Shown piece after piece: positions 18,501-60,042 of a stretch of DNA of 64,000 bases; positions within the stretch are counted from its first letter, which is position 1; every line of letters begins with the position of its first letter. The position numbers and the translations under genes are program-made. The notes beneath the pieces are model-generated. The model saw only the letters and a program-made list of their open reading frames with translations. It was not told the origin of the DNA and ran no database searches. The stretch is from Escherichia coli (GTDB lineage Bacteria > Pseudomonadota > Gammaproteobacteria > Enterobacterales > Enterobacteriaceae), in assembly GCF_016026235.1 (NCBI RefSeq), contig NZ_CP065613.1; one strand, 5' to 3'.

Positions 18501-20480
18501 TCAGAAGCGATAATCCACTGCCATAAAGTAACGACGTCCGTCTTCGTTATAGCTGTAGTCGTCACGACTGAGATCCTTGTTGCCAAGGTTCAGCACGCCT
18601 GCGCGCAGTTTGACGTCTTTAGTCACCTGCCAGGCCGCTCCGGTATTCCAGATGGTATAACCGCCAGGTGTTTTAGCCGTCGCGCTGTCGGCTCGTTTCT
18701 GCCCGGTATAGTGACCAGAAACATAGAATGACCAGTCTTCCAGCGCCAGCGGTTTCCAGTCCAACGTACCGTTAGCGGTATGGAACGGCAGATCAGATAG
18801 CGGTTTATTTTCGCCGTTGCTGACATCACGACCATCGTTGTAGGTGTAGTTGAGTGACAGTTTCCATTCATCGTTGAACGGAATTTTCAGCTCGGTTTCC
18901 ACGCCCTGAATACGTGCTTTGTTAACGTTGTAGTAGCTAAATACCGGCACACCGTTCGCTGTAAAACCAACAAAGTTTTGGTAGCCCGGTGCAGCATTGA
19001 CGTCAGACGTACGGCTGATGCTGATACGATCTTTCACATCGTTACGGAAAACGGTAACGCTGGATTCAACCCCTTCCAGCCAGCCTTCTTCACCCATGTA
19101 GTAAAGCCCCAGCTCCCAACTTTCGCTGGTTTCTGGTTTCAGATCCGGGCTACCCACAATCTTACATGCGCCACGGCAGGAATTGCTCGTCCAGTCAGGG
19201 CTAAGTTGCAACAGAGAAGGTGCTTTAAATGCCGTCGCCCAGCCCCCTTTCACCGTTACGGTGTCGGTGGCGTTATAAACCAGGTAAGCACGCGGACTCC
19301 AGTGTTCACCGTAGGTTTCATGATCGTCCATACGTACGCCGGTCGTCAGCGCCAGCGGCTCGAAGATCCGCCATTCATCTTCCACAAACAGCGCGTACTG
19401 GCTGGCAGACGTTTTGGAGCTGGTTCCCCCGGTCAGGTTCACCGCATCGCTAAGTTTGTCGTGACGCCATTCACCGCCAACCGTGAGAAACTGATTAATC
19501 GCCGTCAGCGGCAACGTGTATTTGCCGTCGACCGTATTGCTTTCGGAAGTTATCGGGCTGCTGTTGCCAGGGTTTTTGTTCTCGACTTTCTCACCGTAGT
19601 ATTTCAGTTCGCTGGTGCCGTAATCCCAACGCCCATTATGGCTGACGGAGTAGTTCTGGCGTTCCAGGCGGTTTTTGTCCAGCGAGTCGGAATCACGATC
19701 CTGACGGTCGAAACCGTATCCGGCAGTAAAATCGTGATTTTGATTCGGTGTCCAGGCAAATTCGACATTGCCGTCGCGGCTGGAGAATCCTTCAATACGC
19801 GGCGTATCTCCGGTATCGGTGGTCGTTGAGTTTTGCGGGTCATCCTTTTCACGTTTTGCCAGGCTGCCGTAAGCTTTCATTCCCAGCACACCATCAATTA
19901 ATGGTCCACTGGTAAAGAACTGACCGTTATAGGTATCACCGCGATCGCGATGTTCCTGAATGGTGGTATCGACGGTAACGGTACCCGACCATTTCTGACC
20001 GATTTTTTTGGTGATGATATTCACTACACCGCCGAGCGCATCGGAACCGTACAGCGACGACATCGGGCCACGGACCACTTCAATACGTTCGATGGAATCG
20101 ACCGGGATCCAGTTCAGATCGAAATCATTGTGGCGGAAGACGGCATTGCGGGAGTTAACGCGTTTACCGTCGACAAGAATCAGGGTGTAGCTGCTGTCCA
20201 GACCACGAATACTAACGCCCTTACGGTTATCCCCTTCGTTCGTCAGTTGTACGCCAGGCACTTCTTTGAGGACATCCTTCAGATTCTGTACCGGTTTTCG
20301 CTGCAGGTCTTCCTGGGTAATGACGCTGATACTGGCGGGTGCATCTTTAAGGTTTTGTTCAACGGAAGATGCAGTGACAACCATCGTTTCGCCATCATCA
20401 TCGACCGCTAACACAGGCCATGCACAAGAAATAGCGGACAAACACAGCCCGACCCGTACGAAAGGGTTCAACCTAAACAT
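18501..20480 (-). CDS. cirA: TonB-dependent catecholate siderophore / colicin I receptor
   Basis: 659-aa ORF with signal peptide, TonB box ETMVVTA, plug and barrel, C-terminal ...AVDYRF. Confidence 0.95.
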
Positions 20481-23425: not shown

Positions 23426-24475
23426 ATGACGAATATCACCTTACAGAAACAACATCGTACACTGTGGCATTTTATTCTGGGGTTAGCCCTGAGTGCAGTT
23501 ATCACCGGGGTCGCCCTGTGGGGTGGTTCCATTCCCGCGGTTGCGGGTGCCGGGTTTAGTGCCCTCACCCTCGCAATCTTGTTGGGGATGGTTTTAGGCA
23601 ACACCATCTATCCGCACATCTGGAAAAGCTGTGACGGTGGTGTGCTGTTTGCCAAGCAATATTTATTACGTCTGGGTATCATTCTTTATGGCTTCCGTCT
23701 GACGTTCTCGCAAATTGCCGATGTCGGTATCAGTGGGATCATCATTGACGTGTTGACGCTGTCCAGTACCTTCCTGCTGGCTTGCTTCCTGGGGCAGAAA
23801 GTGTTTGGTCTGGATAAGCACACCAGCTGGTTGATCGGTGCCGGTAGCAGTATCTGTGGTGCTGCCGCGGTACTGGCGACTGAGCCGGTAGTGAAAGCGG
23901 AAGCCAGTAAAGTAACCGTGGCTGTTGCAACCGTTGTTATCTTCGGGACCGTCGCGATTTTCCTCTACCCGGCGATATATCCGCTGATGTCTCAATGGGT
24001 TAGTCCGGAAACTTTCGGTATCTACATTGGTTCTACTGTGCACGAAGTGGCGCAGGTGGTGGCGGCAGGTCATGCCATCAGCCCGGATGCAGAAAACGCA
24101 GCAGTTATTTCCAAAATGCTGCGCGTGATGATGCTGGCTCCGTTCCTCATCCTGCTGGCGGCGCGTGTTAAACAGCTGTCTGGGGCGAACAGCGGCGAGA
24201 AAAGCAAAATCACTATTCCGTGGTTTGCCATCTTGTTCATCGTAGTTGCCATCTTTAACTCGTTCCACCTGTTACCGCAGAGCGTGGTGAACATGCTGGT
24301 AACGCTGGATACCTTCCTGCTGGCAATGGCGATGGCGGCGCTGGGTCTGACCACTCACGTCAGCGCGCTGAAAAAAGCCGGGGCGAAACCTCTGCTGATG
24401 GCACTGGTACTGTTTGCCTGGCTGATTGTTGGTGGTGGTGCGATTAACTATGTGATTCAAAGCGTCATCGCATAA
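23426..24475 (+). CDS. yeiH: YeiH, UPF0324 inner-membrane protein
   Basis: 349-aa polytopic ORF; AAGGAGAGGG RBS upstream. Confidence 0.9.
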
Positions 24476-24489
24476 ACCACTACATCTTG

Positions 24490-24541
24490 CTCCTGTTAAC
24501 CCGCTATCATTACCGTTTTCCTCCAGCGGGTTTAACAGGAG
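24490..24541 (+). promoter_or_regulatory. Imperfect 15-bp inverted repeat whose 3' arm contains the nfo Shine-Dalgarno
   Basis: ctcctgttaacccgc (24490-24504) pairs with gcgggtttaacaggag (24526-24541) with one bulge; the SD aggag (24537-24541) is in the stem; nfo ATG at 24549. Confidence 0.45.
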
Positions 24542-24548
24542 TCCTCGC

Positions 24549-25406
24549 ATGAAATACATTGGAGCGCACGTTAGTGCTGCTGGCGGTCTGGCAAATGCCG
24601 CAATTCGCGCCGCCGAAATCGACGCAACCGCGTTTGCCTTGTTCACCAAAAACCAACGTCAGTGGCGTGCCGCACCGCTCACGACGCAAACCATCGATGA
24701 ATTCAAAGCCGCCTGTGAAAAATATCACTACACATCGGCGCAAATTCTTCCCCACGACAGTTATCTGATTAACCTCGGACATCCGGTCACTGAAGCTCTG
24801 GAAAAATCGCGCGATGCCTTTATAGATGAAATGCAGCGTTGCGAACAGCTGGGGCTTTCTTTGCTCAACTTCCACCCTGGCAGCCATCTGATGCAGATTT
24901 CAGAAGAGGATTGCCTTGCGCGTATTGCCGAATCCATCAACATTGCGCTGGATAAAACTCAAGGTGTGACTGCGGTGATTGAAAACACCGCCGGTCAGGG
25001 CAGTAACTTAGGGTTTAAATTCGAACATCTCGCGGCGATTATCGACGGCGTGGAAGATAAATCCCGTGTCGGCGTCTGCATTGATACCTGCCATGCTTTC
25101 GCTGCCGGGTATGATTTGCGTACTCCAGCCGAATGCGAGAAAACGTTCGCTGATTTTGCCCGTATTGTCGGCTTTAAGTATCTGCGCGGGATGCACCTTA
25201 ACGATGCGAAAAGCACCTTTGGCAGCCGCGTTGACCGCCATCATAGCCTCGGTGCAGGCAATATCGGTCATGATGCGTTCCGCTGGATCATGCAGGACGA
25301 CCGTTTCGACGGCATTCCGCTGATCCTTGAAACCATCAACCCGGATATCTGGGCAGAAGAGATCGCCTGGCTGAAAGCGCAACAAACTGAAAAAGCGGTA
25401 GCCTGA
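24549..25406 (+). CDS. nfo: Endonuclease IV (AP endonuclease)
   Basis: 285-aa [26 protein letters not shown]..., TIM-barrel AP endonuclease. Confidence 0.95.
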
Positions 25407-25408
25407 AG

Positions 25409-26497
25409 ATGAATAACCGGGAAAAGGAGATCCTTGCAATTTTACGGCGTAACCCGCTGATTCAGCAGAACGAAATTGCGGACATGCTGCAAATCAGTCG
25501 TTCGCGCGTTGCGGCGCATATTATGGATTTAATGCGCAAAGGCCGGATTAAAGGCAAAGGTTACATTCTCACCGAGCAGGAATACTGCGTAGTGGTGGGG
25601 ACAATCAATATGGATATTCGCGGGATGGCGGATATCCATTACCCACAAGCGGCTTCTCATCCCGGTACAATTCATTGCTCGGCGGGCGGCGTGGGTCGCA
25701 ACATCGCCCACAATCTGGCGCTGTTAGGCCGTGACGTCCATTTGCTTTCAGTGATTGGCGATGACTTTTATGGCGAAATGCTCCTGGAAGAAACGCGCCG
25801 TGCCGGCGTGAATGTCTCCGGCTGCGTTCGTTTGCATGGTCAAAGCACATCGACGTATCTGGCAATTGCCAATCGAGACGATCAAACCGTGCTGGCGATT
25901 AACGATACCCATCTGCTGGAACAGTTGACACCGCAACTACTGAACGGGTCGCGCGATTTACTTCGTCATGCGGGCGTGGTACTGGCTGATTGCAACCTGA
26001 CAGCCGAGGCGCTGGAATGGGTCTTTACCCTCGCTGATGAAATCCCGGTGTTTGTCGATACCGTTTCAGAATTCAAAGCGGGCAAAATCAAACACTGGCT
26101 GGCGCATATTCACACCCTGAAACCCACTTTACCGGAGCTGGAAATTTTATGGGGACAGGCGATCACCAGCGATGCTGACCGTAATGCCGCAGTGAATGCA
26201 TTGCATCAGCAAGGTGTTCAGCAACTGTTTGTTTATTTGCCCGATGAGTCAGTTTATTGCAGCGAAAAGGATGGAGAACAATTTTTGCTGACCGCGCCAG
26301 CGCATACGACAGTAGACAGTTTTGGTGCTGACGATGGTTTTATGGCGGGCCTGGTATATAGCTTTCTTGAAGGATACAGTTTCCGCGACAGCGCCCGTTT
26401 TGCGGTAGCCTGCGCGGCAATTTCGCGCGCCAGCGGCAGCTTAAACAACCCTACCCTGTCTGCCGATAACGCGCTTTCATTAGTGCCAATGGTGTAA
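25409..26497 (+). CDS. yeiI: Uncharacterised HTH-fused PfkB-family carbohydrate/nucleoside kinase YeiI
   Basis: 362-aa ORF with N-terminal winged-HTH-like segment (EILAILRRNPLIQQNEIADMLQISRSRVAAHI) followed by a PfkB ribokinase-like domain (GGVGRNIA); ATG is 2 nt after the nfo stop. Confidence 0.85.
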   Translation: MNNREKEILAILRRNPLIQQNEIADMLQISRSRVAAHIMDLMRKGRIKGKGYILTEQEYCVVVGTINMDIRGMADIHYPQAASHPGTIHCSAGGVGRNIAHNLALLGRDVHLLSVIGDDFYGEMLLEETRRAGVNVSGCVRLHGQSTSTYLAIANRDDQTVLAINDTHLLEQLTPQLLNGSRDLLRHAGVVLADCNLTAEALEWVFTLADEIPVFVDTVSEFKAGKIKHWLAHIHTLKPTLPELEILWGQAITSDADRNAAVNALHQQGVQQLFVYLPDESVYCSEKDGEQFLLTAPAHTTVDSFGADDGFMAGLVYSFLEGYSFRDSARFAVACAAISRASGSLNNPTLSADNALSLVPMV

Positions 26498-26504
26498 CAA
26501 TGTT

Positions 26505-26538
26505 GCCGGATTCGACGCTTGACCGCATCTTATCCGGC
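26505..26538. repeat. REP-like palindrome downstream of nupX
   Basis: gccggattcgacgcttgaccgcatcttatccggc; closely resembles the unit after psuT (29696-29732). Confidence 0.55.
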
Positions 26539-26552
26539 TCATAAATTGCGCA

Positions 26553-43222: not shown

Positions 43223-43633
43223 CTCACAGTAATTAACATCATCAGGTTTATTTTTATAGTGAGGATAATCCTGATGATGCGCACCGTGCTTTCATCCATC
43301 GAAAGCAAAAATCATTCTCTACGTAAATGAATGGATTGCATGCGTTTCACTCAATCGTACTTTAATTGACCAATCCCGCTTATTAACTTTCTGTATCACT
43401 TTTTCTTATAAAAAATCATGTAAAACCGCTCGCCAAGACCGCACCAATCGGGTAATCTCGAACTCGTTTTGCCTCGGCGGTAGATTATCCTCACAGCATA
43501 TAATTTTGTGCGTTAGTCCACAGATTTGGCCTTAAGGAATTGTTTCAACATGCCCAGGTAATTAGTCTCGTGTCGCTTGGCATTTTTTTATAACGATATT
43601 TGTCGTTAAGGACTTCAAGGGAAAACAAACAAC

Positions 43634-58030: not shown

Positions 58031-59791
58031 ATGGTAACTCATCGTCAGCGCTACCGTGAAAAAGTCTCCCAAATGGTCAGTTGGGGGCACTGGTTTGCAC
58101 TGTTCAATATTCTGCTTTCGCTCGTCATTGGCAGCCGTTACCTGTTTATCGCCGACTGGCCGACCACGCTTGCTGGTCGCATTTATTCCTACGTAAGCAT
58201 TATCGGCCATTTCAGCTTCCTGGTGTTCGCCACCTATTTGCTGATCCTCTTCCCGCTGACCTTTATCGTCGGCTCCCAGAGGCTGATGAGGTTTTTGTCC
58301 GTCATTCTGGCAACGGCGGGAATGACGCTATTACTGATCGATAGCGAAGTCTTTACTCGTTTCCATCTCCATCTTAATCCCATCGTCTGGCAACTGGTTA
58401 TCAACCCAGACGAAAATGAGATGGCGCGCGACTGGCAGCTGATGTTCATCAGCGTGCCGGTTATTTTATTGCTTGAACTGGTGTTTGCGACGTGGAGCTG
58501 GCAAAAGCTGCGCAGCCTGACGCGTCGTCGACGCTTCGCGCGCCCGCTGGCCGCATTCTTATTTATCGCCTTTATCGCCTCGCATGTGGTGTATATCTGG
58601 GCCGATGCCAACTTCTATCGCCCGATCACCATGCAGCGCGCTAACCTGCCGCTTTCGTACCCGATGACGGCGCGACGTTTTCTTGAGAAGCATGGCCTGC
58701 TTGATGCGCAGGAATATCAACGCCGTCTTATTGAGCAAGGTAATCCAGACGCCGTTTCCGTTCAGTATCCGTTAAGCGAACTGCGCTATCGCGATATGGG
58801 CACTGGGCAGAATGTGCTGTTGATTACTGTCGATGGCCTGAACTACTCACGCTTCGAGAAGCAGATGCCTGCGCTGGCAGGTTTTGCTGAGCAAAATATT
58901 TCGTTCACGCGCCATATGAGCTCCGGCAACACTACAGACAACGGCATCTTTGGCCTGTTCTATGGCATCTCGCCGAGCTATATGGACGGCATTCTGTCGA
59001 CCCGTACGCCTGCGGCATTAATTACTGCGCTTAATCAGCAAGGCTATCAGCTGGGGTTATTCTCATCAGATGGCTTTACCAGCCCGCTGTATCGCCAGGC
59101 ATTGTTGTCAGATTTCTCGATGCCGAGCGTACGCACCCAATCCGACGAGCAGACCGCCACGCAGTGGATCAACTGGCTGGGACGCTACGCACAAGAAGAT
59201 AACCGCTGGTTCTCGTGGGTTTCTTTCAATGGTACTAACATTGACGACAGCAATCAGCAGGCATTTGCGCGGAAATATAGCCGGGCGGCAGGCAATGTCG
59301 ATGACCAGATCTACCGCGTGCTCAATGCACTGCGTGATTCTGGCAAACTGGACAATACGGTGGTGATTATCACTGCCGGTCGGGGTATTCCACTGAGCGA
59401 AGAGGAAGAAACCTTTGACTGGTCCCACGGTCATCTGCAGGTGCCATTAGTGATTCACTGGCCAGGCACGCCGGCGCAGCGTATTAATGCTCTGACTGAT
59501 CATACCGATCTGATGACGACGCTGATGCAACGCCTGCTACATGTCAGCACACCTGCCAGCGAATATTCGCAAGGTCAGGATTTGTTCAACCCTCAACGCC
59601 GTCATTACTGGGTTACCGCAGCGGATAACGATACGCTGGCAATTACCACCCCGAAAAAGACGCTGGTGCTGAACAATAACGGTAAATACCGCACTTACAA
59701 CTTACGTGGTGAAAGAGTGAAAGATGAAAAACCACAGTTAAGTTTGTTATTGCAAGTACTGACAGATGAGAAGCGTTTTATCGCTAACTGA
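58031..59791 (+). CDS. yejM: Inner-membrane LPS/cardiolipin homeostasis protein YejM (PbgA/LapC), sulfatase-like periplasmic domain
   Basis: 586-aa ORF with five N-terminal TM helices and an alkaline-phosphatase-superfamily domain. Confidence 0.9.
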   Translation: MVTHRQRYREKVSQMVSWGHWFALFNILLSLVIGSRYLFIADWPTTLAGRIYSYVSIIGHFSFLVFATYLLILFPLTFIVGSQRLMRFLSVILATAGMTLLLIDSEVFTRFHLHLNPIVWQLVINPDENEMARDWQLMFISVPVILLLELVFATWSWQKLRSLTRRRRFARPLAAFLFIAFIASHVVYIWADANFYRPITMQRANLPLSYPMTARRFLEKHGLLDAQEYQRRLIEQGNPDAVSVQYPLSELRYRDMGTGQNVLLITVDGLNYSRFEKQMPALAGFAEQNISFTRHMSSGNTTDNGIFGLFYGISPSYMDGILSTRTPAALITALNQQGYQLGLFSSDGFTSPLYRQALLSDFSMPSVRTQSDEQTATQWINWLGRYAQEDNRWFSWVSFNGTNIDDSNQQAFARKYSRAAGNVDDQIYRVLNALRDSGKLDNTVVIITAGRGIPLSEEEETFDWSHGHLQVPLVIHWPGTPAQRINALTDHTDLMTTLMQRLLHVSTPASEYSQGQDLFNPQRRHYWVTAADNDTLAITTPKKTLVLNNNGKYRTYNLRGERVKDEKPQLSLLLQVLTDEKRFIAN

Positions 59792-59812
59792 TTAATTATA
59801 AATCAGTTAGCG
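59782..59812 (+). other. Perfect 12-bp stem-loop spanning the yejM stop codon
   Basis: cgctaactgatt-aattata-aatcagttagcg; the TGA stop (59789-59791) lies in the 5' arm; no U tract follows. Confidence 0.5.
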
Positions 59813-59865
59813 AAATATCTTACTTGCAATCGGTGTGGAAAACGGTAGTATTAGCAGCCACGAGT

Positions 59866-59942: not shown

Positions 59943-59955
59943 AAAATCCCAAAAA

Positions 59956-59981
59956 AACCAACCGTAAAGGTTGGTTTTTTT
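59956..59981 (+). terminator. Rho-independent terminator of proL
   Basis: aaccaacc-gtaaa-ggttggtt followed by a T7 run. Confidence 0.8.
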
Positions 59982-60042
59982 ATATCTGCATTTAATTCGA
60001 TAAACAGACCGCGACACATCACGGCCTGTTTATTGTCTGTTA

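Follow-up and report, generated by a model that had tools for sequence, protein, structure and literature searches.

A conserved hairpin around the nfo promoter of Escherichia coli that may insulate nfo from yeiH transcription

An inverted repeat over a Shine-Dalgarno sequence (SD) should not be taken for translational control until the transcription start site (TSS) is known. The spacer between yeiH and nfo in Escherichia coli, which contains such a repeat, raises the question of which RNA can carry the hairpin. The spacer, 73 bp long, lies in a window of 64,000 nucleotides (the whole stretch of DNA analysed, from contig NZ_CP065613.1), where the gene order is yeiE, yeiH, nfo, yeiI; adding 2,226,291 to a window coordinate gives the MG1655 coordinate. 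A first-pass annotation had described an imperfect inverted repeat of 15 bp between the yeiH stop codon and the nfo ATG, with aggag inside its 3' arm, and had suggested that it controls the translation of nfo or the processing or stability of its mRNA. The features on which the question turns are the following:

23426 to 24475, plus strand: yeiH coding sequence, 349 aa (list of open reading frames; RefSeq annotation of MG1655 and other E. coli)
24467 to 24486, plus strand: putative marbox/soxbox ATCGCATAAACCACTACATC (SoxS/MarA/Rob), overlapping the yeiH stop codon and ending 18 bp before the -10 hexamer
24490 to 24505, plus strand: 5' arm CTCCTGTTAACCCGCT, lying in the promoter spacer, roughly from -25 to -10 with respect to the TSS
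24505 to 24510, plus strand: nfo promoter -10 hexamer TATCAT, bordering the loop on its 5' side, 4 nt before the TSS
24506 to 24524, plus strand: loop of 19 nt, with the -10 box, discriminator, TSS and the first 10 or so transcribed nt
24515, plus strand: primary nfo-yeiI TSS (G), equal to MG1655 position 2250806, within the hairpin loop
24525 to 24541, plus strand: 3' arm AGCGGGTTTAACAGGAG, with the bulged U at 24533, in the nfo 5' UTR (+11 to +27)
24537 to 24541, plus strand: Shine-Dalgarno AGGAG of nfo, within the 3' arm and 7 nt from the ATG
24549 to 25406, plus strand: nfo coding sequence, endonuclease IV, 285 aa
25409 to 26497, plus strand: yeiI coding sequence, co-transcribed with nfo from 24515

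The repeat itself was borne out. Its arms, CTCCTGTTAACCCGC(T) at 24490-24505 and (A)GCGGGTTTAACAGGAG at 24525-24541, form 16 bp, the original 15 being extendable by a T-A pair, with one bulged U (24533) and a loop of 19 nt; RNAfold adds an extra pair, G24489-U24542. The yeiH stop codon (24473-24475) is 14 nt 5' of the hairpin and the nfo ATG (24549) 7 nt 3' of it, and AGGAG does lie within its 3' arm, at 24537-24541. As RNA, the repeat has a dG of -23.3 kcal/mol, as against -7.7 +/- 2.2 for 200 dinucleotide shuffles (z -7.1), none of which was as stable. The folding of the wider region 24476-24560 likewise confirmed a strong hairpin (-25.8 kcal/mol, z -5.6).

One simple explanation would be that this is a dispersed repeat of the REP/BIME, ERIC/IRU or MITE type. 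This was ruled out, since 5425 of 5426 complete E. coli genomes each have the repeat at a single place (5264 at least 99% identical over the spacer); the 401-nt stretch around it is at least 99% identical, and annotated yeiH / nfo, in 5425 of the 5426. A search of Rfam found no relevant family, the best match being an irrelevant miRNA model (15 bits, E = 8.7), and no earlier description of the repeat was found in the openly searchable literature. A single ST80 isolate (NZ_CP031215.1) has a 2-bp TG deletion in the 5' arm, equivalent to window positions 24494-24495, which may be natural, and would then weaken the stem, or may be an assembly error, and was not used as evidence. The window contains other strong inverted repeats, at 59781-59813 (a near-perfect 16-nt palindrome with a 1-nt gap), 59951-59981 (an A7.../...T7 hairpin resembling a bidirectional terminator), 60000-60033, 43237-43279 (a 15-nt repeat) and 19680-19750. 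There is also a direct repeat of 13 nt, 85% identical, which links the contexts of the yeiH stop and the nfo start (GTCATCGCATAAA at 24464-24476 and GTCCTCGCATGAA at 24541-24553, spacing 77 nt) and is probably due to chance.

On which RNA can the hairpin form? SMRT-Cappable-seq, which captures triphosphate 5' ends on full-length reads (PMC6131387), places the nfo TSS at NC_000913.3:2250806 (+), a start supported in M9 by 145 reads and in rich medium by 123 (PMC6131387, Supplementary Data 1 and 2). TSSs no more than 5 bp apart were merged, which gives a precision of about +/-5 nt (PMC6131387), and each position within 24515 +/- 5 lies in the loop or in the -10 box that borders it, all of them 3' of the 5' arm. 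The start comes from one dataset, obtained without SoxS induction. The transcript, b2159/b2160 (nfo-yeiI), extends over 2250806-2252832, or 24515-26541 in the window (PMC6131387), and nfo has one transcriptional context only, in both media (PMC6131387). The gap between nfo and yeiI is 2 nt, and their single transcript is flagged as 'novel' relative to RegulonDB, where they are separate operons (PMC6131387).

The sequence upstream of this start has been kept. In the -10 hexamer (TATNAT), the T, A, T and final T are invariant in 33 aligned Enterobacteriaceae spacers, and the ACCCGC that precedes it is nearly invariant; the TSS follows the -10 box unusually closely, at 4 nt. A scan for sigma70 promoters gave a regional match count barely above the shuffle mean, and its only match here, TTAACA-17-TACATT (24532-24560), was rejected because the start would fall within the nfo coding sequence. 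Further upstream, the marbox-like ATCGCATAAACCACTACAT (24467-24485) has 2 mismatches to the consensus AYNGCACNNWNNRYYAAAY, which is a chance-level resemblance (21 matches in 64 kb, against 18 expected), and the ACCACTACAT of the putative marbox is kept in several genera. In the class II geometry of promoters activated by SoxS, MarA or Rob, a 20-bp forward marbox covers the -35 region and leaves about 18-19 bp to the -10 hexamer. Martin et al. (1999) reportedly placed nfo among the class II mar/sox/rob promoters, and the position of the putative marbox is consistent with such a promoter. That nfo is driven by a marbox and SoxS has been described (PMC2989944).

Since transcription starts in the loop, the 5' arm is missing from nfo's own mRNA, which cannot form the hairpin. 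In partition-function folding, the probability that the SD is unpaired is 0.4-0.9 in RNA from 24515 or 24517 and 0.00 in RNA from the yeiH stop codon or further upstream. This gap between own and read-through RNA has the same direction in about 24 of the 28 Enterobacteriaceae species having AGGAG, and is absent in three. The first-pass expectation that the hairpin occludes the SD is thus right for an RNA with both arms and wrong for nfo's own mRNA. It had also named, as the observation that would speak against control of the nfo message, a start downstream of the 5' arm, and this is where SMRT-Cappable-seq puts it. On the folding models, SD occlusion probably matters for silencing read-through RNA, not as a switch on nfo's message. 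In the minimum-energy fold of nfo's own mRNA, CCUCC (24520-24524) pairs with the GGAG of nfo codons 5-6 (24561-24565), so that the SD bases are partly paired (G24539-G24541 have a probability of about 0.4-0.5 of being unpaired). Other genera often have a C-rich tract, TTTCCCC, downstream of the TSS.

A riboregulator in the 5' UTR of nfo, be it a riboswitch, a thermometer or an SD-sequestering leader, was rejected because the 5' arm is not transcribed with nfo. More generally, a hairpin in nfo mRNA might switch translation, or govern processing or stability, in response to temperature, a protein or an sRNA, and the full pairing of the SD when both arms are on one RNA and the conservation of the structure are what such a switch would need. 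This explanation is nonetheless very improbable given that both the primary TSS and the conserved -10 box come after the 5' arm, that the two media reveal a single transcriptional context, that no Rfam family matches and that, in Citrobacter and Kluyvera, the hairpin is kept with no SD inside it.

The hairpin can only form, then, on transcripts that enter from yeiH, the sole gene whose transcripts can contain both arms. The yeiH TSS is at 2249699 (window 23408) and yeiH is given as operon b2158 alone (PMC6131387). In that study, operons that lacked a defined transcription termination site were assigned by their longest read (PMC6131387), so the assignment of yeiH to b2158 alone means that no read from the yeiH TSS spanned all of nfo. 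This is weak evidence against read-through because yeiH is weakly expressed in the media profiled.

Has the hairpin been maintained by selection? The nfo loci of 80 Enterobacterales species, along with those of four more genera obtained by protein look-ups, were compared, and yeiH is upstream of nfo in most of the loci fetched. The hairpin is kept in about 34 species of Enterobacteriaceae, where each spacer (about 60-110 nt) has a strong ACCCGC...GCGGGT hairpin surrounding the -10 box. In all 33 aligned spacers the energies lie between -20 and -36 kcal/mol, with z < -3 in 25 of the 33 and a median of -4.1. Standard pairs fill 83-84% of cells in the E. coli scheme, as against 35-55% when the partners are slid by 1-3 columns. 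Six of the 16 pairs have changes on both sides, a count reached by 12 of 500 and 3 of 500 shuffles in two alignments; the pairs were counted on the stated structure and on a covariance-model alignment, the latter being fitted to the structure. RNAalifold, run on a plain MAFFT alignment, found no consensus structure because variable loop lengths and a moving bulge put the arms out of register. In an Intestinirhabdus alba-like contig (locus L084, 1227-1503), the spacer is G+C-rich and expanded to 271 nt, perhaps by an insertion or a mis-called start: the contig has the 5' arm and a TATTAT -10 box but no usual 3' arm or SD ahead of the called start, and the product has 281 aa instead of 285.

The changes on both sides of the stem take several forms. 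A core C-G has become G-C in Enterobacter ENT03 (ACCCGG/CCGGGT), an A-U has become G-C in Kosakonia (AGACCCGC/GCGGGTCT), a U-A has become C-G in Shimwellia, where the bulge is resolved (CTGTCAAACCCGC/GCGGGTTTGACAG), and a U-A has flipped to A-U in Enterobacter Bisph1. In three lineages, Citrobacter, Cedecea and Entomohabitans, pairing continues inward into the -10 box, and the base facing its fourth position co-varies with it: TATACT/AGTATG in Citrobacter (TATA/UAUg), TATC/GATA in Cedecea and TATG/CATA in Entomohabitans. The covariation is modest overall because the core ACCCGC/GCGGGT is nearly invariant.

These data bear on another possibility, namely that the hairpin is a decayed yeiH terminator, a relic without function, whose arms are constrained separately, the 5' arm by the promoter and the 3' arm by the SD and UTR. 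The loss of the U tract and the long loop in E. coli are as expected of a relic; the pairing may largely mirror the conservation of nearly invariant core hexamers, and the outer helix is merely about 75% paired across species. Against this, compensatory double changes have arisen in several independent lineages, three different Watson-Crick solutions pair with the variable fourth base of the -10 box, sequence conservation is not usual in promoter spacers, and a stability of -20 to -36 kcal/mol has been held in 33 of 33 species. A functionless relic is therefore unlikely.

If the structure is selected, is it selected as DNA or as RNA? The distance from arm to arm ranges from about 8-17 nt in Enterobacter and Leclercia to more than 50 nt in Phytobacter, the loop of Citrobacter (about 9 nt) being shorter than the 19 nt of E. 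coli, and the maintenance of complementarity despite such changes in spacing speaks for a single-stranded hairpin rather than a protein operator. An element at the DNA level could be either an operator at which a dimeric or looping regulator binds or a supercoil-dependent cruciform that controls the nfo promoter; the arms (about -25 to -10 and +11 to +27) bracket the melting region of the promoter, the folding energy is without strand bias, as for a DNA palindrome, and the 5' arm occupies a promoter spacer whose sequence could otherwise drift freely. However, an arm spacing that varies from about 8-17 to more than 50 nt with compensatory changes is the opposite of fixed half-sites, no known regulator motif was recognised, and a 19-nt spacer with a bulge is beyond the range of E. 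coli cruciform surveys (spacer of at most 8-10 bp; PMC6060812), all of which makes a DNA-level element quite improbable.

The strand is a related question. The plus strand is the more stable in 16 of the 33 spacers (p = 0.59), that is, the folding energy has no strand bias, and G-U cells number 39 as against 23 for A-C cells; the data do not prove that the selected molecule is the plus-strand RNA. The matches of the covariance model are confined to the yeiH-nfo spacers of Enterobacteriaceae, with one plus-strand match in the 64-kb window, and its weak reverse-strand matches are due to the element being a palindrome. These matches, and the fact that the minus-strand RNA folds equally well, would also suit a role on the minus strand, as a terminator or stabiliser of an antisense transcript from within nfo. 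Such a role is extremely improbable since no U tract follows the stem on that strand, yeiH, nfo and yeiI are all on the plus strand, the minus strand has no known gene or TSS here, and the only minus-strand terminator-like site of the region is elsewhere, at 24677-24660.

What might an RNA hairpin do in this position? In Citrobacter and Kluyvera, AGGAG has been lost and a 14-bp hairpin, followed by UUUAAUUUAUG, has been kept, which means that masking the SD is not its sole conserved role. The loci of Citrobacter werkmanii, C. youngae, Citrobacter sp. FP75 and Kluyvera have no AGGAG-type SD and have GGCGGGTTTAATTTATG in the roughly 20 nt upstream of the nfo ATG; their 3' arm abuts the start codon, with a U-rich tail after it. 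U-rich tails are found in Scandinavium (UUUUUCUU), RIT691 (UUUUUU) and Citrobacter (UUUAAUUUAU), and also in Pluralibacter and Enterobacter cloacae, while E. coli has none. In those relatives that keep a U-rich tail, the hairpin looks like a terminator.

Other families of the Enterobacterales provide a further clue. In Serratia, Yersinia, Edwardsiella, Providencia and Budvicia, a canonical terminator (stem of 8-12 bp, loop of 4-9 nt, U tract) comes directly after yeiH and upstream of the nfo promoter; the spacer is longer, and the nfo promoter (...CATAAT) lies downstream of the terminator. The 5' arm of the Edwardsiella terminator is CACCCTGTTAACC(C), which has the 10-mer CCTGTTAACC in common with the E. 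coli 5' arm, and this 10-mer has just two other occurrences in the approximately 490 kb of loci fetched. By this shared 10-mer, the E. coli hairpin is probably homologous to the Edwardsiella terminator stem, and the E. coli repeat is probably derived from an ordinary yeiH terminator. In the ancestor of the Enterobacteriaceae, the spacer would have been compacted in such a way that the loop took in the promoter core and the SD region turned into the 3' arm. The long spacers (255-402 nt) of Yersinia artesiana, Pectobacterium betavasculorum and Yersinia aldovae have a common block, ending in ...AGCCAACGCACATGCA(G/A)CTTGAAGTATGAC, between the yeiH terminator and the nfo promoter; this block resembles an enterobacterial repeat of the ERIC/IRU type and may be an insertion.

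The E. coli hairpin has the stem of an intrinsic terminator (16-17 bp, dG -23.3 kcal/mol, 14 nt after the yeiH stop), but its loop of 19 nt exceeds the usual 3-8 nt or so and the sequence 3' of the stem, UCCUCGCAUG, is without a U tract; for these two reasons it is not a canonical intrinsic terminator. The first pass had come to the same view from the missing U tract, and a terminator scan found no plus-strand terminator-like site in 24200-24700. The Term-seq supplement of Adams 2021 holds no entry for yeiH or nfo.

We lean towards the explanation that the hairpin belongs to the 3' end of yeiH transcripts, encloses the nfo promoter and insulates nfo from yeiH transcription. It is known that yeiH is regulated by YeiE and sulfite (PMC12880088). 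An RNA coming from yeiH would carry both arms and form the hairpin of -23 kcal/mol just past the reach of the terminating ribosome. On such read-through RNA, the hairpin would define or protect the 3' end of yeiH and, in E. coli, might act as a weak or factor-assisted terminator. With the nfo SD buried, the read-through RNA would not be translated, and this would favour Rho-dependent termination within nfo. RNA from the nfo promoter, putatively of the class II SoxS/MarA/Rob type, escapes the hairpin because it starts inside the loop: it would have the 3' arm only, leaving the SD accessible and nfo translated. The net effect would be that, within a spacer of 73 bp, a DNA-repair gene is insulated from its sulfite-responsive neighbour in both transcription and translation. 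More tentatively, a stress-inducible promoter may be nested in the loop of a terminator-derived hairpin, with the choice of promoter setting whether the RNA has an open ribosome-binding site (RBS) or a terminator and translation lock.

If confirmed, insulation would mean that the 73-bp spacer holds the end of one unit and the promoter and RBS of the next without cross-talk. It would keep sulfite-induced yeiH transcription from expressing the SoxS-controlled endonuclease IV, and it would leave the picture of nfo regulation by SoxRS as it stands. It would also be a conserved, family-wide insulator at a core chromosomal locus, with a logic known so far mainly from insertion sequences. Composite elements of this sort escape genome surveys in which hairpin loops are capped at 8-10 nt.

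The mechanism is of a known kind; what appears to be new is this instance of it, along with its conservation across the family and the nesting of the promoter. The transposase genes of IS10/Tn10 and IS50/Tn5 are reportedly protected from outside transcription in this manner ('fold-back inhibition'; Davis, Simons and Kleckner, Cell 43:379, 1985, cited in PMC13181058). In these elements, an upstream segment of the read-through RNA pairs with the RBS, which silences that RNA, and the resident promoter starts between the arms, so that its mRNA can be translated. Similarly, the 3' arm at nfo covers the SD and the TSS of nfo itself is between the arms. The differences are that nfo is a single-copy housekeeping gene of the chromosome rather than part of a mobile element, that the -10 box itself is in the loop, that silencing of the read-through RNA is a prediction only, and that the hairpin occupies the site that, in other families, belongs to the terminator of the upstream gene.

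Another parallel is the overlap of the ampC attenuator with the frd terminator in E. coli, reportedly described by Grundstrom and Jaurin in 1982. There, too, one hairpin is the terminator of an upstream operon within the regulatory region of a downstream gene. However, the ampC TSS is upstream of the whole hairpin, so ampC's own transcripts are attenuated, whereas the nfo TSS is in the loop and nfo's own transcripts escape. The intrinsic yeiH terminators of Serratia, Yersinia, Edwardsiella, Providencia and Budvicia resemble the E. coli hairpin in being stable, G+C-containing hairpins that start about 14 nt past the yeiH stop; the 19-nt loop of E. coli holds a promoter, and the tail there is UCCUCGCA.

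The spacer as a whole may be compared with the PeSL (promoter-early stem-loop) cassettes of the T4-type phages RB49 and phi1, in which a stop codon, a sigma70 promoter, a stem-loop, an SD and a start codon follow each other (PMC2839356). Their stem-loop overlaps promoter elements and has been proposed or shown to terminate upstream transcription, thus isolating the downstream gene (PMC2839356). Both are compact intergenic modules with a stem-loop that overlaps promoter elements. However, the PeSL hairpins are short, G/C hairpins in or beside the promoter, multi-copy and recombinogenic (PMC2839356), whereas at nfo the promoter core is inside the loop, the SD is part of the 3' arm and the genome has a single copy of the element. 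Finally, the left end of IS200 has a terminator that blocks impinging transcription and an SD-sequestering stem-loop, both upstream of the same gene (PMC4513863). These are two separate hairpins, and the one over the SD is present in the transposase mRNA (PMC4513863); at nfo, both tasks would fall to one hairpin, and on foreign transcripts only.
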